Part shown: positions 44,463 to 62,079 of the stretch, piece after piece
How positions within the stretch are numbered: the first letter of the stretch is position 1
Layout of the letters: every line of letters begins with the position of its first letter
Made by a program: the position numbers and the translations under genes
Notes under the pieces: generated by a model
Seen by the model: the letters and a program-made list of their open reading frames with translations, nothing else
The model's database searches: none
What the model was told of the DNA's origin: nothing
NCBI GenBank assembly: GCA_041740515.1
Contig: JBGSLV010000036.1
Location: forward strand, 4,429 to 68,428
Length of the DNA stretch: 64,000 bases
Direction: 5' to 3'
Origin: Bdellovibrionales bacterium
Lineage (GTDB): Bacteria > Bdellovibrionota > Bdellovibrionia > Bdellovibrionales > UBA1609

Positions 44463-47400
44463 TTAGGGTCCTGATTCCACTAGTATCTGCGAACTTCGAA
44501 TAGTTATTTGACCTTGTGATGGTGAAACTCGTGATACAAATTTTTCATTTATTGGAAGACCCACAATCTCTGGACTTCGATAGTTATTTAAAGTCGCAGG
44601 GTTGATAAAAATTTGTGATCCCGTCACTAAATTTAATCCTAGATTGCCAGAACTTGCACTATGATACATTAAATCCACTGACCCTTGCGATAAACTGTCG
44701 GTATCGGCTGTCACTTGATAATATACTTTAGGATTAGTAAATTGGCTTCGATCAAAAATAGCGCGTTGATAAGTAAGTATGGTTTCAACTCCAATCATGC
44801 GATTTAAAGATCCAATTCTATAAACTAAACTTGTTTTTGATAAATTTCTAAGTTTTACCCAAAGCCCCGCTTTGTGAATTCGGACGGAACCAGTTGAGCA
44901 GTAATATTCACATCGTAAAACTAATCTGTAATTGTGCCCTTCATTGACCCCACGAAATTGTAAAACACCTTCGTTAAATGGAATACTAGTTATTATTACA
45001 CCAGGTCCTGAAAATCGTGTTTCGGTCATAGCTACTAATTGGCTTGTGTTGTTATTGTAAAGCCCTAATATTCCTTCGGCTCCATTTACTGTTGAAATTA
45101 ATGTCTCAAGTTCCCAAGCGTTATACTCAATGATTTTATCTAAACTTAAAGCTCTTCTGGTAAATAGACTAGCTTGGGGGAAATCATGATAGACAGTGTC
45201 TGATGTGCTATAAGCAAAAACATCAGCGTCAACATTGATTGGGGATTCATCAGAGCTTAGCAAAGGATAATAGATTTTTGTCTTAGTAGCATTGACTTGA
45301 TTAACAAGTAATTTCGCCGAGTACACCGACAGCTGCCCATCTGAAGTCGTCTGTTCAAGCTCTAGTCGAAGTTTCTGTGCCCCCGAATTTATAGTTATAG
45401 GGGATTTAAAAACAGTAGGTTCAAAAGTATTTGCTGGAATTGTTATAAAATCCATCATCACATCTGACTCATTAACAATACCTACAGATCTAGCCGTTGT
45501 ATCAAAATTAGTTCCTATAACTTCAAACTCTAACCCTGTAACACCATCGTAGTCGTTAGTGTCAAAAGTTGTTAAAGTTCTATTGAAAGCTATGTTGTTA
45601 GAGCCACTAGATGCAATCGCTAAGTCTGTTAACTCAATAGGAACTTGAAAGCGTAAAGATCCATCTCTAATGATACTGACAGTGTTGGAACTCACCGATC
45701 TGCGACCATTTGCATACACTCCTCTTACGGCATAATAATAAGTCACAGCTGCGACCACATTACTGTCTAATGCTGAAGTTGTTACAGAAGTTTGTACCAC
45801 GCCGTAAGGACCTGAAGAGGATTCGGATCTTAAAACTTCATACTGTGTCACGGATGGGATAACATCCCAATTTAATTCAACAGCTGAGGTACCGTTTACG
45901 GCTGTTAAATTTGTCGGACCACTCACTAACAGGACCGAAACTTGATTGGAATTGTTAGAAATAACGCCTGAACTATTTACCGTTCGAAGTACATAAAAAT
46001 AACTATCCCCAGGAATTACCGTGGTGTCCAAGTACTCTGTGGTAGCTGGAGGTAACGTAGCTATGACACTGTAAGGTCCCCCTGAATTTACGGATCGAAG
46101 CAGTTCATAACTTGCGATGCTAGGAACATTCGGCCAATATAGCTCTACAGAATTTGTTGACTGCGAAGCTAAATTTAATCCAACCGGAGTTTGAGGTCGT
46201 ATTGATACATTCACAGGGTCACTGATCAGCGAGGTTGCCATTTCACTGCCGTTGATCGCTATAGCTTGATACTGATAATAATAGGTCTGAGCTGGTGCAA
46301 TTGAAGCGTCGACATAAGAGGTCGTTGGTAACCCTGAAGCAATGAGTTCAAAATTAACAGCGTTTGTTGAACGATATAAATTATAGGTATTTGCATTTAC
46401 GACACTTGCCCAAGATATTCCAATTGAAGTGGTAGTGTTAAATTGCACATCTGGCTTAGGCGTGCTCATTTCAGACTGGATCATGACTTCATTAGAAGGT
46501 GCACTTTCATTAAAGCCATTCAAAGCTGTAACTCTAAAATAATACGTAGTTCCTGCTACTAAACCACTGACAATAGTCCCTGAAGAGCTTGTAGTGTTCT
46601 GGATCGGGGCCCCGTAAACTCCGGAAGTTGTTGATCGATAAATATTAAAAGAAGTTCGCCCAGAGACATCCGTCCAAGTTAAATTCACATCATTTCCAGA
46701 TCCAGTGTTTTCAGCATGCAATTGCACTGGAGACAGTGGTATACGCCCAGGACTAAAACCAACGCTAATTGGCGAAAGCAATTGCAGTGGAGGATAGTTT
46801 GTCTTAATCCGATAAAAATATACGTTGCCATTGCTTGCAGTATTATCAGTGAAGTTTGTCATTGCATAGTTTGTGCTAATGGCACTAAAGGTTGATCCAT
46901 CCGTTGATCTTTCAATATCATAATCAATAGCCCCTGCCATTGGTGTCCATGACAAAGTCACTTGATTATTACCCGTTATTCCACTGGGGGCTGAAGCTGG
47001 CATAAATGTCCATGCTTGAGCTACTGGTGAAGTTTGAGGAACACCGGCAACAATGGCCACCACTCTGATGTAATATAAACTTTGAGGATTTAAGCCAAAT
47101 ATGGTTGCCGTATTCGTTGCTGTTGTGGTTGCTATTGTATATGGACCTGCAATGTTTAAGGCCCGTTCCACACGATAAGAAGTTGTGGCTGGAACACTTG
47201 GCCAATCTACACGCATGAACGTATCACCAAGAACCGTTAAGCTGATATTAGAGGGAAGGGTGGAAGTAGTTATTTGACCTAACACAACTTGAGATGATTG
47301 ACCCTCGGTTAAATCCGAAAAGCGCGCACGTACTCGGTAATAATAACCCGTGTTCACGTTGACTGCAGTGTCTTGATAAGTTGCCGTAGAGGCAACATCG

Positions 47401-50400
47401 TAATTGACAAATGGACCATCAAAAGAATTGGCTCTGGCTATGACATAGTCTTGCGCGCCAGCTACAGCATTCCAAGATAGTTGCAAACGATCCGATTGAG
47501 GAGCCATTGCAAAACCAGTTATAGGTGCATTTCTAAATCCAACAGTATTTGTAGGAGCTGTCTCATGACTTCCCCAAACCGCTGTGATTCGAAAAAAATT
47601 CATACCAGTTAATAAAGGTGCGGAACTCATAAATGTAGTGTTAATATTTTGGACAAAAGTAAATGGTCCAAGTTCATTGGCGGATCGGTACAATCTGAAA
47701 TTATTAAAATGTGAAGGTGATATCCAATCCAGCTGAACTCTATTATCTGCAGCAATGAAATTTAAAATCAAATTTCCCGGCGCAGATGGATTAACGTTTG
47801 CTCTTGCCGCTTTGATAGCAGTTGGATAACCGACGTAAATTTTATCGCCATCGATATCAAAAAGATAAGCTTGAACATAATAATAAGCCCCATCCATATT
47901 GGCTGTAGGATCAACCAAAGAACGTGGTGTATAGCCATCCACTAAAACTGAAAAATTTTTGTCAGGGTCTGAAGATTTATATACAGTGTAGAATAAATCC
48001 CCGGAATTGTAGGACCCAAAAGTGCTTGGTGCCGTCCAAGAAAGAATCACTTCGCCATCTCCAGGAGCAAGATTTAATTGTGGCGAATCCGAAGAGTAAA
48101 AACCGACAATATTTGAGCCCCCACTTTCAGAAAGTCCCCATCCTGCTCTGACACGAATGTAATTGATGTTATCATTGCCAAAACCACAATCATCAAATGA
48201 AGCTAAATCAGTAGAACCCATAAGCCCTAAAGAATTTTTTGGAAAGCCTTTATAAACATTAAATGTGTCATAGTAAGAAGATCTGGACCAATTTATTTTT
48301 AAACCCTGACCACCACCGCAACTAGCAATGGCATTAAGTGGAGTGATTGACAATAAGGTCGGAGCACTTGGATTAGCTTTTGGGACAGCTGAAGCTATAT
48401 TAGACTGGGAACTTTCACCGGCAGGATTACTGGCTTTGATTAAATAAAAATAAGTTTGTCCGTTCGACAAACCTGTATCTGCATAAAAAGTTGAAGTCGT
48501 TGTAACTCCTAGATCTGTAAATGGTCCGGCAAATTGTAAAGATCGAAAAATTCGATAAGTGACATTTTCAGGAAATCCACTCCAAGTCAAATTCACTCTT
48601 GAATCACCAACAGTAGTGACCAAATTATTAGAAGCAATTGGTGTTGGAGCTGCAATTGTGATACTAACTTCGGGGGAACTTTGGCTTCGCCCCGTAACAT
48701 TGGATGCAAACACGCGGTAATAATACGTCTCGCCATCAGTAATTTGTAAATCGTTATAGTTATTTCCAATCTGTTGACTGCTTAATACTGTATAAGGGCC
48801 ACCCGACTGGTTTGATCTTTCCACTGTGTATCTAGGAGTGGGATTTGCAAGTCCATCAGGAAGCCAAGACAAATTGACCGAACCATTTACATTGTTACTA
48901 GCCACCAAATTCGCTGGCGGTAAATTGTTATGTGTAAAATTGGTTAAAAATCGGCATGCAGATAAAGTTCCGACTTCATTTATTGTTTGGCCATACAAAG
49001 CCATTGTTGCATTCGGGTTTACTTGTATTGGCACACCAGTGGTTGTCAACAGAGTGGGATTTGCGGAAGTGACTAAACTTGTGCAGATGGAATTAGCATA
49101 AATACTTAAGTTAACTCGATTCATAAAATCTGGACTTAATGTGTAAGACCCAAACAGTCTAATCTCTTGGTTATAAGACGGAGAAGTAGGTGTAGTGCTT
49201 TGAAAGACAGGTGCGGCAGGTACAAGAATATTGTAAGTGTAAAAAGTTAAAAGCGTACAATTACTTTCATTACCTGCCGCATCGAAGGCTTTAGCATAGA
49301 TGGAAGTTTCAGCGTTGATATTCACATCAATCGTTATTCCTGTTGCATTAAATTGATTTGGTGTACCCTCACCCAGTTTTGTTACACAGGAGTCACTGTC
49401 AAAGAATTCAACTCTTGAAGGTGGCAACTGACTGGCTGGATTATCTAACACATCCCCTGAAATAGTCGGTGTCGAGGATTGATTGTTTGGTGAAATGGGA
49501 GCAATCCCGCTGTATGTTGGATTTACTGGAGACACATTATTATGAATATAAGTCGTTAAAAAAACACAAGCTGAAAAGTTACCGTAAATATCAACAGCGC
49601 GAGCAAAAAGCTGAGTGGTCGAATTTAAAGGCAAATTAGCAACAACTCCCGATGCTGTATATTGCCCTCTGGAAGCTGATGCAATCTGTGTGGTACAGGT
49701 TGGGTTGGTAAAAATCCGTATCGTTTCAATTGTAGGATCAGCTGTTCCTAAGATAGCAGGAGTACTAGAAAATCTTGAAGGCGAAGCAGGTACTGTGAAA
49801 GCAAATGTAGGATTCGGCGCAGGCACACTTGAATGTTCATAACTGGCATGGAAGGTACAATCGGACATATTACCTTCAAGATCAGAAACGCGGACGTAGA
49901 TGGGAGTGGTCGAATTGGTATCTAAGTTTAGCAAAATACCATTCACTTCATAATCATCGATATCCCCTTGACCCACACTGACAGTGCATAATTCATCTTT
50001 ATAGAAAAACAAATTTACTGTTCGAGCTGCCGCTTGCCCGATGATCAAAGGAGTTGTTGTTAAATTCGTAGGCGAAAGCGGATCTGTTCTATTAAACACT
50101 GGGTTTTCAGGAGGTGTAGTATTATGAATATAACTTGTTAAAAATGTGCAGTCCGAGCCATTATCAGAGCTATCAAAAGCTCGTGCGTAAATATTGGTTG
50201 TGTCATTGCTGCGTACATTTGTAACGGCACCAATTCCAATAAAATCAGGACGATTTCCAAAACCGATAGTGTTTAAACACAAAGCCGAATCATAAAAAAT
50301 AATCTCATCTGTATCGCTACTTGCCGAACCAAAAATTCTTGGCAAAGTCTTTTGGTTTGTGGGCGACATGGGACTTGCCCCTAAATATCCAAGAGCAGCT

Positions 50401-51350
50401 GGGGGTAAATTGTCATGAGTGTAAGTGGTAAATAAAGCGCATACGGATGGGGCTCCCATCCCATCAACGGATCTTGCATAAATAACTGTGGTTGCATTTT
50501 CAGGCAAAGTTACATCAAAGCCTGCCGTCTCAAAGTCACTGGGATCACCCGAAACCAAAAGGTTCATACAACCAGAATCTGTGTACAACGAAACTGTGAC
50601 TGAACCCACCGAGGTTGTACCTCTTATATTAGGCGCAAAAGAAGCTTTTGAAGGTGACAAAGGTGTAATGGCTAACAATTCAGGAAAGGGACTATTTACA
50701 TTTGAATGCGTAAAATCTGTCATGTAAACACAGCCCGACAATGTGCCAATAGGATCTCTGGTTCTTGCATAAATAGATGTTGTTTGGTTTAAAGGAAGCT
50801 GCACAGCTATGCCAGATTGCGCAAAATTACTTGCTGACCCCGAAGCTAAAGCTTGTGTGCAAATAGCGTCACTAAAAAATTCAACCGTTGACGACAATGG
50901 CAGTGCCTGCCCAAACAAACCCGGAGCCGTAGTAAATCTTGAGGGTGATTGGGGCGATATGGCAGTAAAAATTGGCTCCCCAGGAACTAAAGGGTCATGA
51001 CTAAAGTTTTCAAGCAGCAAGGTACATGTATTTAAAGCTTGCGATTTCACATAAAAATCAGTGGGCACGTTCACCGGAATTTGAACTAAAATTCCCGAAC
51101 TATTAAACTGCGCTACAGTAGCTTGGCCTACACTTACAGTTTGACATAAGTTATCTGTATGTACGGTGAGCAGGTCTAAATTCAAATAATCACTTGAAGT
51201 AACGCCAATAAGTCTTATTTGGGCCAAGACACTTGTGTAATCAATAAGTTGGCTAGAAGTCAGCGATACACTTAAATCTTCAGAAGAGTTTACACGCTCA
51301 CCATCAGCACAAGAAACTTGTAGCCCAAAAGCAAACAGTAATATTAGCAA
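44463..51350 (-). CDS. giant surface (lipo)protein: ~9 N-terminal ~100-aa Cys-pair modules, >=10 fibronectin type III domains, C-terminal beta-sandwich/lectin-like region
   Basis: Repeated 'P..P.F....P.SP.......G........FY.D..C......G...DF....G........T.IYAR..D..GN.S.C....Y.H'. FN3 hallmarks 'YYRV.A.N..G.S..S'. TTG start at 51350 (bounded by an in-frame TAA). Confidence 0.8.
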   Translation of the reverse strand: MLILLFAFGLQVSCADGERVNSSEDLSVSLTSSQLIDYTSVLAQIRLIGVTSSDYLNLDLLTVHTDNLCQTVSVGQATVAQFNSSGILVQIPVNVPTDFYVKSQALNTCTLLLENFSHDPLVPGEPIFTAISPQSPSRFTTAPGLFGQALPLSSTVEFFSDAICTQALASGSASNFAQSGIAVQLPLNQTTSIYARTRDPIGTLSGCVYMTDFTHSNVNSPFPELLAITPLSPSKASFAPNIRGTTSVGSVTVSLYTDSGCMNLLVSGDPSDFETAGFDVTLPENATTVIYARSVDGMGAPSVCALFTTYTHDNLPPAALGYLGASPMSPTNQKTLPRIFGSASSDTDEIIFYDSALCLNTIGFGNRPDFIGIGAVTNVRSNDTTNIYARAFDSSDNGSDCTFLTSYIHNTTPPENPVFNRTDPLSPTNLTTTPLIIGQAAARTVNLFFYKDELCTVSVGQGDIDDYEVNGILLNLDTNSTTPIYVRVSDLEGNMSDCTFHASYEHSSVPAPNPTFAFTVPASPSRFSSTPAILGTADPTIETIRIFTNPTCTTQIASASRGQYTASGVVANLPLNSTTQLFARAVDIYGNFSACVFLTTYIHNNVSPVNPTYSGIAPISPNNQSSTPTISGDVLDNPASQLPPSRVEFFDSDSCVTKLGEGTPNQFNATGITIDVNINAETSIYAKAFDAAGNESNCTLLTFYTYNILVPAAPVFQSTTPTSPSYNQEIRLFGSYTLSPDFMNRVNLSIYANSICTSLVTSANPTLLTTTGVPIQVNPNATMALYGQTINEVGTLSACRFLTNFTHNNLPPANLVASNNVNGSVNLSWLPDGLANPTPRYTVERSNQSGGPYTVLSSQQIGNNYNDLQITDGETYYYRVFASNVTGRSQSSPEVSITIAAPTPIASNNLVTTVGDSRVNLTWSGFPENVTYRIFRSLQFAGPFTDLGVTTTSTFYADTGLSNGQTYFYLIKASNPAGESSQSNIASAVPKANPSAPTLLSITPLNAIASCGGGQGLKINWSRSSYYDTFNVYKGFPKNSLGLMGSTDLASFDDCGFGNDNINYIRVRAGWGLSESGGSNIVGFYSSDSPQLNLAPGDGEVILSWTAPSTFGSYNSGDLFYTVYKSSDPDKNFSVLVDGYTPRSLVDPTANMDGAYYYVQAYLFDIDGDKIYVGYPTAIKAARANVNPSAPGNLILNFIAADNRVQLDWISPSHFNNFRLYRSANELGPFTFVQNINTTFMSSAPLLTGMNFFRITAVWGSHETAPTNTVGFRNAPITGFAMAPQSDRLQLSWNAVAGAQDYVIARANSFDGPFVNYDVASTATYQDTAVNVNTGYYYRVRARFSDLTEGQSSQVVLGQITTSTLPSNISLTVLGDTFMRVDWPSVPATTSYRVERALNIAGPYTIATTTATNTATIFGLNPQSLYYIRVVAIVAGVPQTSPVAQAWTFMPASAPSGITGNNQVTLSWTPMAGAIDYDIERSTDGSTFSAISTNYAMTNFTDNTASNGNVYFYRIKTNYPPLQLLSPISVGFSPGRIPLSPVQLHAENTGSGNDVNLTWTDVSGRTSFNIYRSTTSGVYGAPIQNTTSSSGTIVSGLVAGTTYYFRVTALNGFNESAPSNEVMIQSEMSTPKPDVQFNTTTSIGISWASVVNANTYNLYRSTNAVNFELIASGLPTTSYVDASIAPAQTYYYQYQAIAINGSEMATSLISDPVNVSIRPQTPVGLNLASQSTNSVELYWPNVPSIASYELLRSVNSGGPYSVIATLPPATTEYLDTTVIPGDSYFYVLRTVNSSGVISNNSNQVSVLLVSGPTNLTAVNGTSAVELNWDVIPSVTQYEVLRSESSSGPYGVVQTSVTTSALDSNVVAAVTYYYAVRGVYANGRRSVSSNTVSIIRDGSLRFQVPIELTDLAIASSGSNNIAFNRTLTTFDTNDYDGVTGLEFEVIGTNFDTTARSVGIVNESDVMMDFITIPANTFEPTVFKSPITINSGAQKLRLELEQTTSDGQLSVYSAKLLVNQVNATKTKIYYPLLSSDESPINVDADVFAYSTSDTVYHDFPQASLFTRRALSLDKIIEYNAWELETLISTVNGAEGILGLYNNNTSQLVAMTETRFSGPGVIITSIPFNEGVLQFRGVNEGHNYRLVLRCEYYCSTGSVRIHKAGLWVKLRNLSKTSLVYRIGSLNRMIGVETILTYQRAIFDRSQFTNPKVYYQVTADTDSLSQGSVDLMYHSASSGNLGLNLVTGSQIFINPATLNNYRSPEIVGLPINEKFVSRVSPSQGQITIRSSQILVESGP

Positions 51351-51392
51351 CCAAACACGTTCCAGAATAACTTCCTTAATAGTAAATTTTTT

Positions 51393-54300
51393 TTATTGAC
51401 CTAGAAACACTTTAATGAGCGCCTCCGAATCATCTAAAATGGTTATATCCAAAATTTGATCATTATTTAAATCATCGACAGCAATATGACTTGCATTCAC
51501 ACCCGTATTAATACTAGATATAGTTGCATAGTTGCCGGTTGGTGAACCAAACAAAATGGTTAGGTTTCGTTGCATACCATTGCCAACAATAATATCTTCT
51601 CGACCATTTCCGTTCAAATCACCTTTAGCCAGTGAAGTAGGTTCAATACCTGCTGAAAAATGATTGGCTGGATTAAAAGTTCCATCGCCTCGACCTTTTA
51701 AAATACTTACCGAAGATGATATGTTATTTGATACGGCTAAATCTAAGAAACCATCCGAATCAAAAAAACCAGCAATGATACCATTGGGGCCTGATTCAAC
51801 ATCAAAGTCTGCTGTTTGAAAGGTGCCATTGCCATTGGATAAAAACACTGTGACGGAATCATCGGACTGATTTACAACAGCCACATCCAAAACGAAATCT
51901 TCATTAAAATCACCAGCGGTAATATGTGAGGGTTGTGCTCCTGAAACTGAAGTTGTTCTTGGGCCAAATGATCCATCTCCTTGCCCAGGAAGAAAGTTCA
52001 TGCGATTTGCCCCACTGCAAGTTACGGCAACATCCATTAGACCATCGTTATTAAAATCTCCATGAACTATAGATGTGGGTTGTGAATGTACGGGATAACT
52101 TCCACCTGAAGCAAAAACACCGCCCCCTTGCCCCATAAAAACCCGCACTGAGCTTGCAGCATTAAGCACAATCACTAAGTCTACTAAACCATCGTTATTT
52201 AAATCTACAAAATCGGCATCAGTAGGACTATTGCCAACGTTTAAAAATCCAAGAGAACTAAACAAACCATTTCCTAAACCTTTGTGAAGAGTTATGGAAT
52301 TTGCGGCACGATTGACAACTGCTTTATCCAAAAATCCATCATTATCCAGATCATGACTGATCACTTTTACGGGTGTATCTGACACTGAGGTTAAAAAACC
52401 AAGTATTCCATCTGTTTGACCCGGTAAAATTTGAATTTTAGTTTCCCCATTAGAAACAATCAGTAAGTCCTGAAGCATATCCTGATTAAAATCTGAAGCC
52501 ATTATGTTGATGGGATTTGATAAAGTATTAATAGATGGTCTGATATCAAATGTCCCGGTATTCAAGCCGTAAAAAATTGAAAGCGTGCTATCGCCAACAT
52601 TAGCTATCGCTAAATCAATAAAGCCGTCGGCATTCAAGTCCTTAGCACTTAGAGCAATTGGCGTCAGCCCTACACTTGTAATATCCGGAATATCAAATGT
52701 TCCATCATTTAAGTTTAGAAATACCGAAATATTATCACTCCCACTATTTGTGACAATAATATCTTGAAAAAGATCACCGTTTAAACGAGCCATGGTAACA
52801 CTTGATGGGGCCACACCTGTGCTGTAAATCACTTGTGATGAAAAACCACCACTGCCATTATTAATATAAACACTCATCGTATCATCAGATGCGTTGATAA
52901 CAGCTAAATCTTCAAAACCATCGTTATTTAAATCACCTACCGCAACTTTTGTGGGTAGAGATCCAGAAGGATAAATAGTGGGTGAGTCAAAAGTGCCATT
53001 ATTATTTCCAAATCTTATTGCAATGTTGTTAGAAGCTCCATTGACTATCACAATATCTTTATCGCCATCATTGTTAAAATCACCAATGGCTACATCAACT
53101 GGTAAAGTTTCAAGGGGATCTTGCAAAGTATTTACGGCCGCACTGAAAGAACCATTGCCAACTCCAGCTAAAAATGAAAATTGCCCAGTCCCATTACAAA
53201 CTAAAATTAAATCTTTATTGGTGTCATTATTGAAATCCGCAAACGCCATGCCCGAAGGGCCGCTGCAAAGACCAGTTAGTTTGGACTGTGTGGTAAAAAG
53301 TCCGTTGCCTCGTCCCAAAAATCTAGAAATGGTAGCTTCACTTTTGTTTAAAACAAAAATATCATTGAAACCATCATTATTAAAATCACCAACCAAAGTA
53401 TTTTCGGCACCACTACCCACATTATAATTCAAATCAAAAGCTCCTGAATTTCTACTTTGACTTGATAATAAAAAGCGAGCTTTACTTAATCCTGAAGCAA
53501 CCACATCGGGTAGAGTTCCAATTAGGGGTAAAACAGAAACATAGGATCTTGCTGCATTATACCCTTGAAGCACCGATACCGTTGCCGTTCCTGATGCATT
53601 CGTGCGACGTTCTGAAGGACCAATGATATGAACATCCCCAGCTGTTCGTTGGAAGAGGACTGGATAATTTGATACGCCATTACCAAAACGATCTACAACT
53701 CGTATACTAATAGGTTCAGAAAAACTTTGCCCGATAAATGCGGACTGATTATTTCCACTAAGAGTAGGAAACTCAAAATGATCAGCGACATCTGCTAAAA
53801 CTTGAATGTTTATCTGTTGTGAAAATCCTTGGTTGTCAGTCACAGTTAAAACATCGGTGACGCCAGCTCGGGATCCCGCCGTATAAGTACTGGTGCTTGA
53901 ATTGTAATTCGCTGTCAGCGAATTATTTTGCGTTAACACAACCGTATATGGTGCTGTCCCGCCGGTGATATTAAAAACTTCACTTTGGCCAACAACGATC
54001 TGTGGATCATTTGGGATTACGCTTAATGACTGTTTTTGCCAAACTAAATTTAAGCTGGCTTGATTACCCGCTAGATCGGTTTGTCTGATTTCAATATTGT
54101 AATTGCCGTCAGCAAATTTAGGTAAACTTATACTAAATGTCGAATTGGAACATGTCGTAGAACCTGTACCATCATTGGCTAAACTAACCAAAGCGCCTGT
54201 TTCACAGCCCCCTTGAATATTGAGTACAGCCTCGCTAGAGCTATGTGGGTTACTGGGAGGATAAGTTAAAGAAGGTTGAGAGACGCTGGTTTTTCGATAC

Positions 54301-54671
54301 CAAATAAAACTCACTGGGGCTGAAATGTTTCCCATATCATTTTGAGTTAGAAAATAATTATAAACGCCATCGGTCGTTTGGCTTAGCGCAAAAGAAAATT
54401 CAGAGTTGGAGCATATCGTTGAGGCGATCGAGGCTCCAGAGAGAGAAATTAAACTCCCCGATTTACAAAGTCCTTGAATTGATAAAGTACTTCCTTGCGA
54501 GTAATAAGGGTTTTGTGCAGGAATACTTAAAACAGGTACTTCTATATCGGGACCATTGTTAGAGCTTTGAACATTAAGATTTTGTTTACAAGATATAAAA
54601 TTAATAACAGCAAAAAATGCTGTTATTAATTTTATAATTTTAAAACTAAAGTCAACGTTCCCTATATTCAT
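51393..54671 (-). CDS. FG-GAP/VCBS-repeat (integrin-alpha-like beta-propeller) lipoprotein with N-terminal Ig-like domains
   Basis: >=13 copies of 'GDFNNDGF.D..V'-type FG-GAP motifs. Lipobox-like 'FISCKQ'. Confidence 0.8.
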   Translation of the reverse strand: MNIGNVDFSFKIIKLITAFFAVINFISCKQNLNVQSSNNGPDIEVPVLSIPAQNPYYSQGSTLSIQGLCKSGSLISLSGASIASTICSNSEFSFALSQTTDGVYNYFLTQNDMGNISAPVSFIWYRKTSVSQPSLTYPPSNPHSSSEAVLNIQGGCETGALVSLANDGTGSTTCSNSTFSISLPKFADGNYNIEIRQTDLAGNQASLNLVWQKQSLSVIPNDPQIVVGQSEVFNITGGTAPYTVVLTQNNSLTANYNSSTSTYTAGSRAGVTDVLTVTDNQGFSQQINIQVLADVADHFEFPTLSGNNQSAFIGQSFSEPISIRVVDRFGNGVSNYPVLFQRTAGDVHIIGPSERRTNASGTATVSVLQGYNAARSYVSVLPLIGTLPDVVASGLSKARFLLSSQSRNSGAFDLNYNVGSGAENTLVGDFNNDGFNDIFVLNKSEATISRFLGRGNGLFTTQSKLTGLCSGPSGMAFADFNNDTNKDLILVCNGTGQFSFLAGVGNGSFSAAVNTLQDPLETLPVDVAIGDFNNDGDKDIVIVNGASNNIAIRFGNNNGTFDSPTIYPSGSLPTKVAVGDLNNDGFEDLAVINASDDTMSVYINNGSGGFSSQVIYSTGVAPSSVTMARLNGDLFQDIIVTNSGSDNISVFLNLNDGTFDIPDITSVGLTPIALSAKDLNADGFIDLAIANVGDSTLSIFYGLNTGTFDIRPSINTLSNPINIMASDFNQDMLQDLLIVSNGETKIQILPGQTDGILGFLTSVSDTPVKVISHDLDNDGFLDKAVVNRAANSITLHKGLGNGLFSSLGFLNVGNSPTDADFVDLNNDGLVDLVIVLNAASSVRVFMGQGGGVFASGGSYPVHSQPTSIVHGDFNNDGLMDVAVTCSGANRMNFLPGQGDGSFGPRTTSVSGAQPSHITAGDFNEDFVLDVAVVNQSDDSVTVFLSNGNGTFQTADFDVESGPNGIIAGFFDSDGFLDLAVSNNISSSVSILKGRGDGTFNPANHFSAGIEPTSLAKGDLNGNGREDIIVGNGMQRNLTILFGSPTGNYATISSINTGVNASHIAVDDLNNDQILDITILDDSEALIKVFLGQ

Positions 54672-54729: not shown

Positions 54730-57700
54730 CTATTTCGGAAATCGTGTCATACGATTGCCATTTTTGTCTGTGACATATAAAAAGTGGTCGTCTCCAAACA
54801 TCATACCCAAAGAGTCATTAAATTTACCCAAAGTAGATCCACTAGAGACTCTTCCGCCTTGACACCATCCGGGTGTCAAATCTGATGACCCAGCACAGCC
54901 TGGATCGCCACCACTGGTTGGGAATGAAGCTTGAATGCCACCTTTCCAACCTACAATAGTTCCTGTGGTTTTATCCATTTTCCATATAGCAGCGCCATTG
55001 CCACTTCCACATGTGTTGGCATTCATACCGTAAATAAAATTTGAATCAACCCATACACTCACTGGCATTGAGCAGTCTAGACCATTACCAATATTGGCAA
55101 TGTTAGCAGCGGCACTTTGCCACGTGTTAACGTACATATCTTGTCGTGTGCTAGTGGATTCCACCAACACGCCACCAAAAGTGTATTTGTCGATACGGAT
55201 ATTTCTAGTATTGGTGATGTATAAGTGCGAACCGTCTGTGGCTATTCCACCTCGATCATAGTTACCCCAATCAAAGTTAAAACCACCACCACGATCATTT
55301 CTATAACTCGCTAAAGAGGCCGAACCACCTAAGCACCATCCTGCCACGGATACCACATAGTTGCCATTACTTGCTGTTGTACAACCTGGATTTGGCGCTG
55401 AACCCACTCGACCAATCCAACCATTGAAATTTCCCGTAGCCGCATTATAGGAGGACACACGGTGATTTCTTGTATCAACTACATATAAATTCCCACCATG
55501 GAAGACAATAGCTGTGGGTTGATACATTTGACCATCCCCATTACCTTCTCGGCTAAGTCCACCTAAACACCAACCCGGAGTAAAAGAGTTCACTCCAGCG
55601 GCTGTACATCCAGGATCGCCACCGGTTGGAATATTAGCCACAGAATTTCCAATGCGACCAATCCATCCCCCATAAGCACCAGTATCAAGATTGAACCTTT
55701 GAATTCGATGTAAACTAAAATCAGTTACATACAACCATGTGCCATCAGTGGTTAAACCGTGGGGTCTTTGCATTATACCATTAACGTTGGAAGCAATTAA
55801 GTTTTGATCACCCCATGTGAAAGACGGATAATTACTGGCTCCTAAACACCAACTCGGTGATGGCCCCATAGCATTGGCCGCTAAACAGGAAGCTGGATTT
55901 TGTCCTCCCGTAGCGGTCGAGGTCATAGCTCCGATCCAACCTATTAATTCCCCAGTGCGTTTATTAAATTTTTTAACTCTAGAGCCATCCACTTCGGCCA
56001 TAAACAAAAAATCACCCACAATAAGTGAACCCATAGGATTATAAGTCGAATAGTCATCAAAGCCATGAAATTCCACTCGTGCTTGTCTGTCAGAAGACCA
56101 TGATCTTGGACTGATGCTCTCTAGACCAATGCTGCCTTGATAATTACCTGTGCTAACGCTGAATTTTTTAAGCATAGGAAAGCGTCGACTGATGGTCACA
56201 AATGAGCCTGAACCATCTAAAGCAAGGCCCCAATTATCCAAGAAAGAAGTTTCATCTAAACCTGGTTTGTAGGTTCCACCCAAGCACCATCCCGGTGTGT
56301 TTTGATTTGACGCCAACGAGTTACAGCCTGCATTACCACTCATGCCTGAAGGGTTGGCGACTTTCCCCATCCAAGATTCTATGAGGCCAGTTGCACCAAC
56401 TTTTAAAATACGCTCATCATCGGCCACATAAAAGAATGATCCATCAAAATCCATTGCAATAGGATTGTTCCAATTGAAACTTAAATTGGCTAATCGTTGG
56501 ATAAAGGCACCAGTATCAATATTATATCTATTGATCACACCACCATCACCACTATTTAGGACGTATAGGTTTGTGCCACTGATAACCATGTCACGGGCTT
56601 CACGAACACCACCTTGCACCCCACTTTGGGATTGAGCATTGGAATATAAAAACTCACCACCAAAACACCAACCTGGAGTCCGTTGACCTTGTGGAGTTGA
56701 AGTACAACCTACGGCTCCCCCAGTTGGAGTCACGTTAACAATACCTAACCAACCTTGAAAGGCCCCTGTGGCTTTATTATATCTTAAAACAGCACCAGAA
56801 ACGCCTACATACATGAATACAGAATCTACTTTTACACCGTTGGGGTTAATCATACGCCCATCACCGATTCGACTGTTTCCAGTATCAAGGCTTCCACCTC
56901 GACACCAACCCGGTGACACTGTACTTGTTGAAGTGTTACAGCTTCCAGGACCACCCGTTGCCGATCCACTTGGAGCTGTTGTACCTATCAGACCAATCCA
57001 CCCTTCGAATTCACCGGTATCAATACGGTGACGAGAGACTGAATTTGTATTTGAACTTGAAACATAAATGTAAGTATCATCGGCTGTAATGCCCCATGGA
57101 TTACTAAATCCCCCAGTTGATTCAGTACCATTGATTGACAATCCACCCACACACCATCCTGGCAATGGCTGATCATTGCCGGTTCCAACGCATAATGCAC
57201 TGCTTGGAATCGATTGCGCACTTCCAGATGGTCCTATACCGTTCTCGCGGCGCATACGCCCAATCCATCCACGATACTCTAATGATTGGTAGTCGTACTT
57301 GATCACACGGTTGGCATCATGATCTGCTACAAATAAGAACTGTTTATTTGGCGAAAAAGCTATATGATTCGCACCACGAATTCCATCATATCGTGCGGCA
57401 ACTGGTTTTACGCCCATTCTAAAAGGCAATAAATTTCCATTTGAATCTGTCTGAGTTGAAGCAGTTCCAACCCAACCTAAATCGCCAAGAACAGCCCATG
57501 CTTGTGTAGCAGCTGTTAAAACTCCAGCACTATGAGTCGCCGTCAAAGTTAAACTTGTTTCAGGAAACTGCCCTTTAAAGTAAAACTGTCTTGAGCTTTG
57601 ACCTGAAATAAAAGTTGTAGATGTAATGATTGCGGTACAATTATTATCGCTATAAAAAGCCCCTGAAATTCCTGCCCCAGATAAATTAGCTTGGGTTGTT

Positions 57701-60591
57701 GCCACCACCGGAGCCACTGTTCCTACACCGTCTAAAGTTTCTAGAACAAATGGTCCTCGACACTGGCTAGTTAAAGAACTTACTGGCAACACAGGAGGTG
57801 TTATACGAAACGCAGATGGGCTGATCGTTAATGTTCGAGTACTAGACTGGGTCATTCCCAAGGCCACATTCGAAATAAAAATATTTAAAATCTCAGCCTG
57901 GTTACCACGGAAATATACGGGTGTTGATCCCGATCCATTCGGCATAGTGATTGTCGTATTAGACCCACCACCTGTGCATGACGAAGATGTGTAAAATCGG
58001 CCAGTGGTTGATACTCCCTGTACACCGTTGATGGTTAGATTTAAATTTTGATGTGCAGGAACAACATTATTTAAAGTGTCTCGAAGACTTACCGTAAATG
58101 CAGTTGAACATTGACCTGCGACAACGCTTGATGGTCCTGTATAATTAATTCTTGAAGCTAAAACTTTAATCTCTTGCGGCAAGGACACCGTAGTAATTAA
58201 ACCATTTGGATCAGCGGCGTTAACCATTAAATTTTCACCCACAGGATCTCTTAAATAAACAAAAGTATTTGAATTTGGCGCGGCCCCTAAACTCATTGGA
58301 AAACTTGTAGCCGTAATCGCCGTTGTACAAGTATCATCAGAAAAAAGCGTGGCACTTGACCCTAATATACCAGACATAGCTATATTAATTGTTCCAAAAA
58401 CTTGTCCTTGGGTGTCGTCCTCTGCAAGGGGTGAAATCACAATTCGAGTTGAACATTGTCCAGATAGAACCGTCAGCAATGTTCCTGGGGCTGCAGGAAT
58501 AGCAGCTTCAGCCAATAAACGAATTTTACTTGGTGTGATATTCAAAGCGTAGTTTGCCGCTGTTAAAACAGATGAAGAGTCAGAGACTGCAATATTTAAA
58601 GCCAATGATTTATTATTTTTTAAATAAAGAATTTTAGTGTTTTGTCCTGTACTGAATAGAACATTGGTACTTAGTGGTGCGCCCCCACATGTGTTGCTAG
58701 AGTAAAAACTTGAAGTCCCATGACCAGAGATTTGCACGGTTGTATTACCAGTGGCGTTGGCTAAATTGCCTCCTAAATCGCGAAGCTGTATTAAGATCTG
58801 ATCACTACACTGTCCCGATCGAACTTCACTAGGACCTGATACTGTAATGACTCTTGGTATGCCGGCTGTAATGTTAAAGTTATTACTTGTTGCTGGAGTT
58901 AAAACTCCAGAATTGGCGACCAAACGATAGTTGGTACCTGTTCTATCAATACCTAAATCATTAAACTGAGCAATCCCATTAACAGCGACCACAGGATTTG
59001 TTCCGGTAAGTATTGCACCATTAACGTTATTCGAAATTGTTAAAGCAATTGATGACGAAGCTTGTGCACCTGTGGTGATAAGATTGCCCTGGGCATCTTG
59101 AACTGCAAGTTGAATTGGGTTCATACTTGCCAGACCTGCAGGGGAAGTTTGTGGCTGTGCTAAAAAAGCCAATCGAGCAGGAGGCCCCGCTTTGAACGGA
59201 GCTAAAACTTGTATGGCATTAAGACCCGAGGGTGAAGTGATACTTAAAACTCTTGCCGGTGTTGTATCTGCAATTGAAGTTGAAATAGAACCAGTTGTGA
59301 CTCCCGTTGCATCGGTGTTTAACGAGGGCTGTGTTATCGAATCACCCACAATGTTCGAAGAAAATTGCGGTCTAATTCCTGAAACGGGGTTTCCAAAAGA
59401 ATCACGAAGCGTAAAAATCACTTGATAGGAATCCGAGCCATTGGCAATCAAAGCTTCAAACGGAGGAATAATGGCTGGATTAATTGTTAGTGTACTTAAA
59501 GTCGGCGAAACGTTTCCTGGTGTTATATTAAATTGGCTAGAGTCAACAACCATCTCTGGACTACCAAAAGGTAAACCTGAGGTATCAGCTTTACGTGCCG
59601 ATATTATTTTTAATCCCGACTCTTCAAAATTAATTCCAGTGAATGTGGCAACTCCCGCCACAGCATTGATGGCAAATGTTCCACCAACACTTCCGCTGGA
59701 GGGGGATGTCGGTGCGATCTCTAAAGTGATAAGAGCCGTGGCATCAGGTCCCCCTGAAACAATATTACCATTTTCATCTAAAACTCGTACTACAGGCTGT
59801 TGAGTTAATATTTGTCCCGCTTGAGCATTTCCAGGTTGGGTTGCAAAAACTAAAGATTCAGCTCGACCCAAAGCTGTAAAGGTCACAATTTGATTATTAT
59901 TATCTTCAATACCATCAACGGAAACAGCAACACGGCAATTATAAACTGTGTTTGTAACTAAGCTTGTGATTGGCACGCTTGTCAAAGTGATATCTGTAAG
60001 TGTGCTAACTAAACTGAATTCAGTTGCTGCAGCGGTTTTACAATAGACGCTAACTGCTGTGGCTTCACCGGATGTAGCAGGACTAAAATTTAAAATAGCT
60101 TCAGTGCTACTTACTACAAGTGCATTGGTTGCACCCCCATAAGCAATACCTGGAAGATCATTTTCATTTATGTCTTCCATATCTCGATCATCAACAGCTT
60201 TGACTCGAAATTGGTAAACTCTATTTCTATTTAAGCCTGAAATAATGGTTGAAGACACGTTGCCAACTTCTCGTTTAATTTCTGGGAAGGAAGGTAAAGT
60301 TGTATCGTAGATGCGATAACCTGTTACTCTTGTGCTTGAAGATTGAGTCCAAGTGATTCGGACCGAAGAGTCTGATAAAGTTTGGACTGTGGCAGCTCCG
60401 GTAAAGCCACCAAATGTTGTATCCCCATCAATGATAGCTTGAGTTAATGACTCTTCAGAAGGCATACATGAAACTACGGCATGAAGAGATAAGACTAATA
60501 TTAATCTTAAGAAATTTTTTAAGTGAAACAATCTATTAAGATTTGCTGCTTTATAATTATAAACTTGTAAAATGGCTTTTACATGTTTCAT
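54730..60591 (-). CDS. giant lipoprotein: N-terminal FN3/Ig-like (BIG) domains and a C-terminal ~900-aa NHL-like beta-propeller with a repeated 'G-C-x(8-12)-PGWC-x-GG' loop
   Basis: Met at 60591 is preceded by a GGGAGAG RBS and begins a lipoprotein signal (...LHAVVSC). 8 repeats each with 'GW[IL]G', 'GC...', 'PGWC[VRFLQ]GG' and 'LY[VI].D...R[VI]..Y'. The ORF track extends to 60696. Confidence 0.8.
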   Translation of the reverse strand: MKHVKAILQVYNYKAANLNRLFHLKNFLRLILVLSLHAVVSCMPSEESLTQAIIDGDTTFGGFTGAATVQTLSDSSVRITWTQSSSTRVTGYRIYDTTLPSFPEIKREVGNVSSTIISGLNRNRVYQFRVKAVDDRDMEDINENDLPGIAYGGATNALVVSSTEAILNFSPATSGEATAVSVYCKTAAATEFSLVSTLTDITLTSVPITSLVTNTVYNCRVAVSVDGIEDNNNQIVTFTALGRAESLVFATQPGNAQAGQILTQQPVVRVLDENGNIVSGGPDATALITLEIAPTSPSSGSVGGTFAINAVAGVATFTGINFEESGLKIISARKADTSGLPFGSPEMVVDSSQFNITPGNVSPTLSTLTINPAIIPPFEALIANGSDSYQVIFTLRDSFGNPVSGIRPQFSSNIVGDSITQPSLNTDATGVTTGSISTSIADTTPARVLSITSPSGLNAIQVLAPFKAGPPARLAFLAQPQTSPAGLASMNPIQLAVQDAQGNLITTGAQASSSIALTISNNVNGAILTGTNPVVAVNGIAQFNDLGIDRTGTNYRLVANSGVLTPATSNNFNITAGIPRVITVSGPSEVRSGQCSDQILIQLRDLGGNLANATGNTTVQISGHGTSSFYSSNTCGGAPLSTNVLFSTGQNTKILYLKNNKSLALNIAVSDSSSVLTAANYALNITPSKIRLLAEAAIPAAPGTLLTVLSGQCSTRIVISPLAEDDTQGQVFGTINIAMSGILGSSATLFSDDTCTTAITATSFPMSLGAAPNSNTFVYLRDPVGENLMVNAADPNGLITTVSLPQEIKVLASRINYTGPSSVVAGQCSTAFTVSLRDTLNNVVPAHQNLNLTINGVQGVSTTGRFYTSSSCTGGGSNTTITMPNGSGSTPVYFRGNQAEILNIFISNVALGMTQSSTRTLTISPSAFRITPPVLPVSSLTSQCRGPFVLETLDGVGTVAPVVATTQANLSGAGISGAFYSDNNCTAIITSTTFISGQSSRQFYFKGQFPETSLTLTATHSAGVLTAATQAWAVLGDLGWVGTASTQTDSNGNLLPFRMGVKPVAARYDGIRGANHIAFSPNKQFLFVADHDANRVIKYDYQSLEYRGWIGRMRRENGIGPSGSAQSIPSSALCVGTGNDQPLPGWCVGGLSINGTESTGGFSNPWGITADDTYIYVSSSNTNSVSRHRIDTGEFEGWIGLIGTTAPSGSATGGPGSCNTSTSTVSPGWCRGGSLDTGNSRIGDGRMINPNGVKVDSVFMYVGVSGAVLRYNKATGAFQGWLGIVNVTPTGGAVGCTSTPQGQRTPGWCFGGEFLYSNAQSQSGVQGGVREARDMVISGTNLYVLNSGDGGVINRYNIDTGAFIQRLANLSFNWNNPIAMDFDGSFFYVADDERILKVGATGLIESWMGKVANPSGMSGNAGCNSLASNQNTPGWCLGGTYKPGLDETSFLDNWGLALDGSGSFVTISRRFPMLKKFSVSTGNYQGSIGLESISPRSWSSDRQARVEFHGFDDYSTYNPMGSLIVGDFLFMAEVDGSRVKKFNKRTGELIGWIGAMTSTATGGQNPASCLAANAMGPSPSWCLGASNYPSFTWGDQNLIASNVNGIMQRPHGLTTDGTWLYVTDFSLHRIQRFNLDTGAYGGWIGRIGNSVANIPTGGDPGCTAAGVNSFTPGWCLGGLSREGNGDGQMYQPTAIVFHGGNLYVVDTRNHRVSSYNAATGNFNGWIGRVGSAPNPGCTTASNGNYVVSVAGWCLGGSASLASYRNDRGGGFNFDWGNYDRGGIATDGSHLYITNTRNIRIDKYTFGGVLVESTSTRQDMYVNTWQSAAANIANIGNGLDCSMPVSVWVDSNFIYGMNANTCGSGNGAAIWKMDKTTGTIVGWKGGIQASFPTSGGDPGCAGSSDLTPGWCQGGRVSSGSTLGKFNDSLGMMFGDDHFLYVTDKNGNRMTRFPK

Positions 60592-60933
60592 CTTTACTCT
60601 CCCGCTTACGTACAAATTCTTTAACAAAATTGAACAGATATTTATCGTCATGTTATATAAAGTCCTGCAGATTCTAAGAGGACATAAGTGTTTCAATTTA
60701 AGAATAGACTAAATTTTAAGACCAAAGTTCAGAAAACAAATCTTAAGATTAGGTTAAAGGATAAATCTTCATCACTCATCCAACGTAGTGGATTTAAGTG
60801 TATCAAAATAAGAATTTATTATGTTCTGATTTTTAAGATCTTAAGATTTCATGCAGAACACATTTTGAAAATGCACAAAAATATCCTTTTGAGACACTAA
60901 GATTTGTAAACATTAAGACACTATAGATTGGCT

Positions 60934-62079
60934 TTAAAAACTTAAAGCTACATAGGCATTGAACTGGTCTGTGTTTATTTTTTCAAGGGTATCGGTAAAT
61001 CTGTGGCTTGAGTATGAAAACCCATACTGTACTCTTCGAAGATTGTTTAAATTTTGGGTTAAATCCAAACTTAATTTTAAGGATCTTTCGCTAATAGGCT
61101 CCGAAAAATCATATGGTCTATAACTAATTTCAGCTCCGTAACTGATATCACTGTCACGATAGAATTCGGTTCGTAAACCCAAATCAAAGCCATATAAACC
61201 CGAAAATCCAAAAGGTGCACCTAAGGAAAAAAGGTTTATCGTGCCGCCGCCCAAAGTAATACGACTTCGATATTTAGGATTACGCACCAATGGGATTAAG
61301 TAACTTAAACCTACCCTGCCCTCAAAAAACTGTGGGTTTTCCTCCACTGGGGATGACGTATAGGTGAACAGTGTCAATAAAGCATCTGCAAAGTATCCCA
61401 ATTTATACCCTTTTTCAGGAGATGTGTACTTGGCTCCAACGAGTAAAGCTTGGGATACAAAAGTTCCAAATGAACTTTGACGATAGATCAAATACGAATG
61501 CCCAATGGAAAAAAATACCGAGTCAAAAACATTGGCCATTTTATACTCCCTAGCTTCAGGAGCAAAAAGATACAAGGTTTCACCAACTCGTTCATTCTTT
61601 GGTCCAACCGCTGTCAGATATAGCGTGCTAATTCTAGATCTAAGATAAGCGTAAACGACGTATTCACCTTCGACATCTGACTTCCGAACAGGTTCCTTAT
61701 CACTCAAAAAGATTTTCCATCCGGGTTTATTATACTTAAGTTTAAGCTTTACCATGGGTCTAAAGTTTTCACCCTGAGGCACCAAATAAACTGGAACTTT
61801 ATCAGTTTCTAATATTAAATCTTCAATACTACTGCTGCTTGTTTTATCTCTTAGAATGTGGGCTATCCAAAGCGCTTGTTTGGATTTATAAACTTCTCTA
61901 TCTTCAGGGGTGATCTGTTTGGAATTATTTGGTGTTATAGGCTTAGCAGCATCTATGGCTGGAACAGCATCTGGTTTAGACACTCCCTCAGCCAAGACGT
62001 TTTGTAAATGGAGCATCAGTGCAAATAGCAGCAAAATTTTCATACTTTTAAGGTTCTCAAATACTAAGACTTCTGACAA
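60934..62079 (-). CDS. secreted protein with C-terminal outer-membrane beta-barrel-like domain
   Basis: Signal MKILLLFALMLHLQNVLA. C-terminal half has alternating aromatic/Gly strands ending in ...YVALSF (terminal Phe). Confidence 0.5.
   Translation of the reverse strand: MSEVLVFENLKSMKILLLFALMLHLQNVLAEGVSKPDAVPAIDAAKPITPNNSKQITPEDREVYKSKQALWIAHILRDKTSSSSIEDLILETDKVPVYLVPQGENFRPMVKLKLKYNKPGWKIFLSDKEPVRKSDVEGEYVVYAYLRSRISTLYLTAVGPKNERVGETLYLFAPEAREYKMANVFDSVFFSIGHSYLIYRQSSFGTFVSQALLVGAKYTSPEKGYKLGYFADALLTLFTYTSSPVEENPQFFEGRVGLSYLIPLVRNPKYRSRITLGGGTINLFSLGAPFGFSGLYGFDLGLRTEFYRDSDISYGAEISYRPYDFSEPISERSLKLSLDLTQNLNNLRRVQYGFSYSSHRFTDTLEKINTDQFNAYVALSF

Follow-up and report, generated by a model that had tools for sequence, protein, structure and literature searches.

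We analysed a 64,000-nucleotide stretch of DNA (the window) in which an open reading frame of 1988 aa was mechanically called at 54730..60696. This frame and all of the features described below lie on the minus strand, and residue numbers follow the frame as called. From the sequence, its true start is almost certainly the methionine at position 36 (M36), making the coding sequence one of 1953 aa, not 1988 aa (54730..60591, stop codon included). A Shine–Dalgarno sequence, GGGAGAG, lies 5′ of the M36 ATG, and the same gene stands as 1953 aa in an independent annotation of an identical Logan contig. The product begins with a predicted signal peptide running to a lipobox, A-V-V-S-C77 (60466..60591, by sequence pattern). 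Pattern matching placed LILVLSLHAVVS-C77, which agrees with the lipobox pattern [LVI][ASTVI][GAS]C, after an N-terminal hydrophobic stretch, and Cys77 is the predicted lipidated N terminus. A lipobox occurs at the same position in all 13 orthologues with readable N termini (for example, LASC/LPEE, LTSC/LPKEE and VAGC/LPKEE), and pattern inspection found a signal peptide or lipobox in every complete family member.

The mature protein divides into a stalk and a head. The membrane-proximal end of the stalk is an FN3 region (59857..60465; Pfam fn3, E = 1.6e-10) with two stretches matching fn3, the better one at aa 103–170. It is followed by an Ig-like stalk (57493..59856) delineated by Pfam matches, cysteine positions and repeats, which includes a Big_1/Invasin_D3 match (aa 398–479) and four repeats of about 115 aa (aa 613–1068), each with its own cysteine pair. 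The sequence supports an earlier note's description of a predator/adhesin surface protein, in that the product is predicted to be an exported lipoprotein, belongs to Bdellovibrio-like bacteria and has an adhesin-type stalk. Downstream lie an FG-GAP/VCBS propeller protein of 1092 aa that also has Ig domains (51393..54671; Pfam FG-GAP_3, E = 5e-82) and a 2295-aa FN3-containing giant (44463..51350; Pfam fn3, E = 1e-22). The FG-GAP gene adjoins the NHL gene in loci L120 and L123 and in at least 17 genome loci, and the FN3 giant is syntenic in L120, L123, L065, L098, L045 and L009. The order of this conserved triad is NHL lipoprotein first, then FG-GAP protein, then FN3 giant.

A regular-expression scan of the translation found eight in-frame copies of [PA][GS]WCxG[GA] in the C-terminal 920 aa of the open reading frame, exactly the eight strings that had been listed in the earlier note, spanning 57142-57162 (first copy) to 54853-54873 (last copy). 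A six-frame scan found the motif nowhere else in the window. All eight copies have a partner cysteine upstream, 8–13 residues before the proline (9–13 had been claimed, which is essentially right), with a Cys-to-Cys spacing of 11–16. In order, the motifs and the loops that contain them are PGWCVGG at aa 1179 (loop 1, Cys pair 1169/1182, 57142..57192, after blade 1), PGWCRGG at aa 1262 (loop 2, 1253/1265, 56893..56940, after blade 2), PGWCFGG at aa 1341 (loop 3, 1331/1344, 56656..56706, after blade 3), PGWCLGG at aa 1468 (loop 4, 1458/1471, 56275..56325, after blade 5), PSWCLGA at aa 1614 (loop 5, 1604/1617, 55837..55887, after blade 7), PGWCLGG at aa 1707 (loop 6, 1697/1710, 55558..55608, after blade 8), AGWCLGG at aa 1785 (loop 7, 1772/1788, 55324..55383, after blade 9) and PGWCQGG at aa 1942 (loop 8, 1934/1945, 54853..54897, after blade 11). 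A G-W-x-G turn precedes seven of the eight loops (GWIG five times, GWLG and GWKG) and SWMG precedes the remaining one; an NHL-type LYV.D..N.RI blade follows every loop. This is close to the setting described previously, a G-W-[IL]-G turn and then an NHL-like strand.

We found that an AlphaFold2 model of the head (aa 1069–1988, 54733..57492; pLDDT 88.6, pTM 0.91) contains 12 four-stranded blades by DSSP, which in this model we read as two six-bladed NHL β-propellers. Propeller 1 (56125..57372) comprises blades 1 (57250-57372), 2 (56986-57099), 3 (56731-56838), 4 (56491-56598), 5 (56353-56457) and 6 (56125-56235), and propeller 2 (54733..56037) comprises blades 7 (55924-56037), 8 (55651-55764), 9 (55399-55518), 10 (55150-55245), 11 (54934-55068) and 12 (54736-54810). 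The protein terminates after strand C of blade 12, and the modelled N-terminal strand GWVGTAST (57454..57477; model residues 6–13) would supply strand D of that blade as a velcro closure. The model of a canonical homologue, P0007 (pLDDT 93.1), has a comparable long N-terminal strand, 12 blades and ten loops at a pLDDT of about 95. In the window protein, the insertion sits at eight junctions between the outermost strand D ('G-W-I-G') of one blade and strand A of the next, is 25–45 residues long and Gly/Pro-rich, and has a DSSP signature common to all eight loops. Loop 6 is the most canonical unit (pLDDT 94–97), and loop 7 is a longer β-hairpin variant. The loop consensus of the family is P-T-G-G-x-x-G-C-x(12)-... 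T-P-G-W-C-x-G-G. In the family ground plan that we infer, each propeller has five loops, and both the 6-to-7 junction and the C terminus are bare; the orthologue group of the window protein would in addition have dropped the loops that followed blades 4 and 10.

The blades themselves are canonical NHL, and the novelty is the loop inserted between blades of ordinary six-bladed propellers. The earlier note had suggested a propeller signature distinct from canonical NHL, which is not supported: the protein scores 39.7 bits against Pfam NHL (PF01436; cut-off 20), 18 of the 33 units that were searched singly match NHL, and the canonical family member P0047 matches it with E = 5e-70. A profile of the unit matches PknD and the PknD-derived Pizza proteins (E = 1e-19 to 1e-32) in the blade part only. 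In Foldseek searches with the head model, tandem propellers matched over the full length and a six-bladed NHL domain at a TMt of 0.84, and the modelled four-stranded antiparallel blades, arranged in six-bladed propellers, are superposable on solved NHL domains. The blade cores are 32–45 aa long, and the canonical units reach 79–93 aa because of the inserted loop, unlike NHL repeats of about 40–45 residues with short inter-blade turns. Repeat length plays no part in the Pfam definition of NHL membership.

We sought loop relatives by exhaustive profile search and surveyed their taxonomy with a degenerate DNA pattern. Clustered at 50% identity, the loop-bearing proteins among 1.84 billion representative proteins form only 202 clusters, and, among the matches listed, almost every carrier with a taxonomic label is a Bdellovibrionota metagenome-assembled genome (MAG). 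No match to the loop was found in Pfam, NCBIfam or PDB sequences, and the check proposed previously, for an existing Pfam propeller family with the same cysteine pair, found none, the known matches being confined to the blade. A literature search on the PGWC-loop motif or family likewise found nothing. The stalks fused to the module in other members are of the Calx-beta, FN3, Invasin_D3 (14 copies), Filamin and Big_1 types. Across 16 orthologues, 172 positions are near-invariant, mostly Gly, Trp, Pro and Cys together with the NHL framework residues Asp, Tyr and Arg. The family is a sharply delimited, uncatalogued NHL propeller subfamily and a modest variation on a well-known fold.

The loop cysteines are conserved, and lost, as pairs. 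An upstream cysteine accompanies all 322 WCxG motifs in 41 proteins, at a spacing of 13 in 249 of the 322, and 644 of the 718 propeller-region cysteines of these proteins belong to loop pairs. Among 1335 non-redundant loops from relatives, 1310 have both cysteines, which bears out the claim of a conserved pair in an inserted loop; 11, from about 9–10 independent proteins, have neither, and one or two have a true single cysteine, as counted on raw sequence, the spacing of the partner cysteine being variable. In L007 and L019 both cysteines of loop 7 were lost jointly, and in one protein the pair has moved within the loop. Since the cysteines are kept or lost together and the family carries predicted export signals, an intraloop disulfide in each loop is strongly inferred from sequence.

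Comparison with known propellers sets the family apart in its loops and in its architecture. The profile match to the PknD sensor domain of Mycobacterium tuberculosis (PDB 1RWI) and to Pizza stops short of the loop; PknD blades are about 42 aa long, with short D-to-A turns and without the cysteine pair, and PknD carries a single propeller on a kinase, whereas the window protein has two in tandem on the Ig/FN3 stalk of a lipoprotein. The NHL domains of TRIM71/LIN-41, TRIM2, Brat and Thin (15–19% identity) are single, cytoplasmic, RNA- or protein-binding propellers without disulfides or inter-blade insertions. Like the window head, Aip1 and Utp21 (tandem WD40) and LRP6 (YWTD pairs) have two propellers per chain and gave full-length Foldseek matches, but they are built from other repeat families, and the whole-chain TM scores are low (0.2–0.46). 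In Aip1, an N-terminal strand completes the last blade, as the N-terminal strand of the window protein's head would do. The YWTD domains of LRP and LDLR also form six-bladed propellers outside the cell, alongside disulfide-rich elements; however, LRP has its disulfides in EGF modules that stand apart between the propellers, whereas those predicted here lie in inter-blade loops, and the Ldl_recept_b profile (YWTD/LDL-receptor class B) did not match the window protein. Teneurin, a giant adhesion protein, likewise has an extracellular NHL propeller (Pfam TEN_NHL), and family members match this profile weakly to moderately. The FG-GAP propellers of integrin-α offer a functional analogy, being extracellular heads stiffened by a short motif on several blades, but they use Ca-binding hairpins on seven blades of another repeat family, whereas the inserts here are cysteine-based; no homology is implied.

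On the evidence of the sequence, the module most likely serves a surface adhesin as a rigid head for binding. Our preferred explanation, which we hold with a probability of about 0.7, is an oxidation-stabilised, non-catalytic tandem-propeller binding head of a surface lipoprotein in a Bdellovibrionota adhesion or recognition apparatus. The lipoprotein would be exported by Sec and lipidated at Cys77, and each intraloop disulfide would staple its insertion into a small rigid β-meander. By topology, all D-to-A connections of a propeller would emerge on the same face, and the stapled loops would therefore form a crown around that face, which is the usual ligand-binding face of NHL domains. Blade 12 probably takes its last strand from the N-terminal GWVG, which would lock the two propellers together, and the FN3/Ig stalk would hold the head away from the membrane. 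The head may then act together with the FG-GAP propeller protein, presumed to be co-transcribed, and with the FN3 giant in cell-surface adhesion or recognition of a putative ligand. The lipoprotein could face the periplasm instead of the outside.

Bdellovibrio-like bacteria conserve a set of three giant envelope proteins, one of which has this subfamily as its head, and the subfamily provides groups working on predatory bacteria with a candidate surface-recognition module and operon. Annotators gain a specific signature to replace 'hypothetical protein' or 'YvrE lactonase'. For protein engineers, it offers a natural case of a symmetric propeller, of the kind used in the Pizza scaffold, stiffened by one predicted disulfide loop per blade junction. 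A Cys-loop NHL subfamily does not overturn established knowledge of propellers.

One possible extension is that the head recognises prey or a substrate and that the loops form the surface which determines its specificity, the stapled crown being the ligand site and diversified per target. The confinement of the family to Bdellovibrionota-type genomes among the matches listed, the paralogue arrays (a tandem run of three in L122, and MAGs with several loci each) and the adhesin-type stalks that bear the module are consistent with this idea. So is the loop itself, in which the framework (the two cysteines, TPGW and GG) is near-invariant across orthologues and the residues in between vary. However, the residues between the cysteines are no more variable than those of other loops (1.71 versus 1.66 bits), so nothing marks the loops as specificity determinants, and within the orthologue group each loop (4, 5 and 8, for example) keeps its own conserved flavour, which argues for conservation and against diversification. 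We consider this extension unlikely, and equally doubtful the fuller proposal that the stapled crown is a new kind of ligand-binding surface, that the triad is an apparatus specific to Bdellovibrionota with which the outer surface recognises prey or substrate, and that the inter-Cys residues set its specificity. The idea of a specificity surface refines the preferred explanation and does not exclude it.

Two functional alternatives to a stapled, non-catalytic head fare worse. The cysteine pairs might be redox or metal sites, engaged in thiol–disulfide exchange or in binding Zn or Fe, rather than structural staples. This is improbable: each loop has just two cysteines, with no conserved His, Asp or extra Cys nearby, the modal pattern is C-x12-C with no CxxC, the protein lacks a Trx domain, and structural staples typically have such a copy number (5–10 per protein) and such a Gly/Pro/Trp framework. 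It is at least as improbable that the propellers act as enzymes (lactonase/SGL, strictosidine-synthase or PAL type) with the loops as mere decoration. A weak match to SMP-30/gluconolactonase/LRE-like (PF08450), just above threshold (28.9 bits, cut-off 26.3) and covering one blade (profile positions 100–164 of 246), leaves a slight chance of an enzymatic role. None of the 172 near-invariant positions of the 16 orthologues is a His or Glu, and the conserved Asp is that of the NHL 'LYV.D' motif, an indirect argument drawn from the alignment.

A new propeller repeat, whether a two-blade unit of about 100 aa or a non-NHL fold, might be suspected from the single NHL repeat that passes Pfam in the window protein and from an apparent period about twice that of NHL, but it is refuted by DSSP of the window-protein and P0007 models and by the match of the unit profile to PknD and Pizza blades, and we regard it as highly implausible. 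The earlier note had offered a two-blade or inserted-hairpin unit; the inserted hairpin stood and the two-blade unit did not, as DSSP resolves the unit into one blade plus an insertion. A loop had also been ascribed to each blade, but 12 blades carry eight loops. Because only eight of the 12 blades are followed by a loop, the reported period of about 100 aa is a mixture of canonical 79–93-aa units and loop-less junctions.

Chance, or a collapsed or expanded assembly, as the source of the repeat count can be rejected with near certainty: the DNA pattern TGGTGYNNNGGNGS was observed eight times against 0.14 expected (100 shuffles, maximum 2), the copies diverge in DNA, and independent assemblies agree. 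Recurrence at the DNA level is limited to a 23-nt stretch of 70–91% identity with synonymous differences. No long near-identical DNA repeats were found among the motif copies, and the array is therefore not a mis-assembled repeat, a possibility that had been raised with the original observation. The spacings between motifs are 234–471 nt, every one a multiple of three. The same eight-loop layout occurs in independently assembled orthologues at 42–79% identity, and the identical sequence is present in an independent Logan assembly.

A regex scan of the translated giant lipoprotein (ORF 54730–60696, minus strand, 1,988 aa) recovered exactly eight motif strings, at aa 1179, 1262, 1341, 1468, 1614, 1707, 1785 and 1942, the same eight PGWC-type strings listed in the earlier note. 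At each copy, a second cysteine lies 11–16 residues N-terminal to the motif cysteine (pairs 1169/1182, 1253/1265, 1331/1344, 1458/1471, 1604/1617, 1697/1710, 1772/1788 and 1934/1945). The motif was absent from every other frame and gene of the 64-kb window, and the 8 matches to its DNA pattern compare with an expectation of 0.14 from shuffled sequence. Recurrence at the DNA level was limited to the 23 nt encoding PGWCxGG (70–91% identity), the spacings between copies were all multiples of three, and no long near-identical DNA repeats were found in the motif region. These results exclude chance as the source of the count, and likewise a mis-assembled repeat, a possibility that the earlier note had raised. 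The true start of the protein is very probably M36, which has a Shine–Dalgarno sequence (GGGAGAG) upstream; on an identical contig in the Logan assembly of SRR28170465, the gene was called as 1,953 aa.

The propeller signature had been regarded as non-canonical, a view not supported by Pfam, which matched one NHL repeat at 39.7 bits (cut-off 20), besides fn3 and Big_1/Invasin_D3; a marginal SGL match covered one blade, and NCBIfam gave no match to the protein. By eye and by alignment, we found 12 blades of the form P.G...D....LYV.D..N.RI.K....TG.F.GWIG in the C-terminal 920 aa. When 33 units taken from the protein and from homologues were aligned, a consensus of ~80 aa emerged, P.G...D....LYV.D..N.RI.K....TG.F.GWIG.I.TSPTGGAAGC.GA.VG..TPGWC.GG....G.GDG., and 18 of these units matched Pfam NHL when scanned singly. 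The 50-residue loop segments alone matched no Pfam family. Profile searches of the kind that had been proposed led to the same division. The whole-unit profile matched PknD and PknD-derived Pizza proteins in the PDB (E values 1e-19 to 1e-32), with the likeness confined to profile positions 2–30, which are the blade, whereas the loop-only profile matched nothing meaningful among PDB sequences.

An AlphaFold2 model of the head, built with a 40-sequence alignment (pLDDT 88.6, pTM 0.91), contained twelve four-stranded blades. The motif-bearing junctions shared a DSSP signature that runs from strand D (GWIG) through a PTGG bridge, one further bridge residue, a bridge two residues long at WC and, past GG, a short strand, to strand A of the next blade. 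The model of a canonical homologue, P0007, agreed (pLDDT 93.1, pTM 0.85, ten loops at pLDDT ~95). Together, the blade count, the DSSP signature and the second model indicate that the predicted module is two six-bladed NHL propellers and not a new propeller type. In these models, a repeat unit comprises a single blade and an insertion within the D-to-A connection; of the 'two-blade or inserted-hairpin unit' suggested previously, the insertion was borne out but the two-blade period was not. In the family ground plan, each propeller appears to carry five loops, and the 6-to-7 junction and the end of blade 12 are free of them. Eight loops remain in the window protein and its nearest relatives, which have none after blades 4 or 10. 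Strand C of blade 12 is the last in the protein, whose propeller module opens with a 'GWVG' strand. By analogy with the velcro closure of some tandem WD40 proteins, we infer that this N-terminal strand closes blade 12. By propeller topology, the D-to-A connections all emerge on a single face, which they share with the B–C loops, and this is the face usually used by NHL domains for binding.

The two cysteines of each loop are conserved and lost in concert. Across 41 proteins, an upstream cysteine accompanied all 322 WCxG motifs, at a spacing of 13 in 249, and loop pairs accounted for 644 of the 718 cysteines in the propeller regions. From 946 sequences, a loop HMM yielded 1,335 non-redundant loops, of which 1,310 had both cysteines and 11, from about 9–10 independent proteins, had neither, typically through WC to WS or WT changes; both cysteines of loop 7 were lost jointly in relatives at loci L007 and L019. 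Ten hits carried the motif cysteine alone: eight were truncated at a fragment start or very short partial matches, one (in P0125) had its partner just beyond the 26 residues scanned, and P0157 contained one true single-cysteine loop. The upstream cysteine stood alone in four hits, one in P0054, where the motif cysteine is one position off (CW for WC), and three in P0147. In the latter (aa 109–150, 202–249 and 519–565), the motif cysteine is replaced (GWA or GWV) and a second cysteine lies 5–7 residues from the first, a C-x5-7-C pair relocated within the loop. By pattern inspection, lipoboxes mark both the window protein and 13 full-length orthologues, and complete homologues carry signal peptides or lipoboxes, signals by which the protein should reach an oxidising compartment. 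From this evolutionary pattern and the export signals, we strongly infer an intraloop cystine in each loop. Directly before the propellers, four ~115-aa Ig-like stalk repeats (57493–58860; aa 613–1068) each have their own conserved-looking C-x39-43-C pair (630/670, 748/790, 863/907 and 979/1020), which suggests that the whole ectodomain may be disulfide-stabilised.

An exhaustive loop-only profile search of 1.84 billion representatives retrieved only 202 clusters (E ≤ 1e-3; 161 at E ≤ 1e-10), whose proteins usually have 8–11 loops and span about 900–4,840 aa. The 40 motif-bearing homologues from the first protein search all came from metagenomes or Bdellovibrionota MAGs, under names such as 'hypothetical', 'YvrE' and 'choice-of-anchor D'. 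GTDB representative genomes, scanned with a degenerate DNA pattern, gave at least 59 loci that carry three loops or more. Among the 59 listed, 50 were labelled Bdellovibrionales, Pseudobdellovibrionaceae, Bdellovibrionia, Bacteriovoracaceae or Oligoflexia, 7 only 'Proteobacteria', 'Pseudomonadota' or 'Deltaproteobacteria', and 2 'Myxococcota'; among the matches listed, other phyla gave mostly single chance matches and no cultured strain appeared. Orthologues that share this architecture over their full length (lipobox, FN3, Ig, tandem NHL) were 42–79% identical, the best being L013 in the Bdellovibrionales MAG GFS_9291. The module also occurs fused to other stalks (Calx-beta, Invasin_D3 x14, Filamin), and as stand-alone secreted proteins of ~900 aa in tandem paralogue arrays; at locus L122 (4156–13883), three short-form paralogues (794–943 aa) in tandem are followed by a convergent radical SAM gene. 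The loop is not covered by Pfam, NCBIfam or PDB sequences, and we found nothing in the literature on the motif or family. The 'undescribed propeller subfamily' proposed earlier holds as a subfamily of NHL propellers that are arranged in tandem and regularly bear a cystine loop between blades, but not as a new propeller class.

Near-invariant positions in 16 orthologues were mainly G, W, P and C, together with D, Y and R of the NHL framework, and neither His nor Glu was conserved among them; this and the one-blade extent of the SGL hit argue against a lactonase-type enzyme. The loop framework was almost invariant (Cys 0.11 bits, TPGW 0.44 bits). Residues between the cysteines scored 1.71 bits, versus 1.66 for other loops and 1.30 for strands, so they vary as other loops do and hypervariability was not found. 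The best reading of the sequence is that the protein would present a rigid, cystine-stapled, putative binding head on an adhesin stalk and belong to a conserved envelope triad. The putative partners follow on the same strand (44463–54671, minus), first an FG-GAP/VCBS propeller protein (1,092 aa) and then an FN3 giant (2,295 aa). The triad recurs in relatives down to about 35–40% identity, and its gene order is kept at many genome loci, in L120 (at about 40% identity) and in L123 (a 2.45-Mb metagenome contig).

Immediately upstream of the NHL gene, a 381-aa protein (60934–62079, minus strand) with a signal peptide and the C terminus ...YVALSF looks like an outer-membrane beta-barrel and had no Pfam or NCBIfam match. 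Its gene holds this position in at least nine loci (L103, L093, L041, L012, L088, L050, L018, L066 and L032), but L120 and L123 lack it there. A 449-aa Cys-rich ORF (62147–63496, minus strand), in which 'L(F/Y)C.G'-like motifs recur and a signal peptide is absent, likewise matched neither database. Downstream of the triad, three small envelope genes (41122–44232, minus strand) encode a TPR lipoprotein that has an LTSC lipobox and weak PilW/Tgl-like hits, a 588-aa protein that has an internal hydrophobic stretch besides its signal peptide, and an OMP-like protein of 224 aa that matched PorG weakly. Elsewhere in the window (10924–16545 and 18875–22468, both minus strand) are a second giant Ig-repeat protein (1,873 aa; Big_6/Big_13/Glucodextran_B; locally higher GC, 0.44) and a TonB-dependent receptor that carries a CarboxypepD_reg domain.
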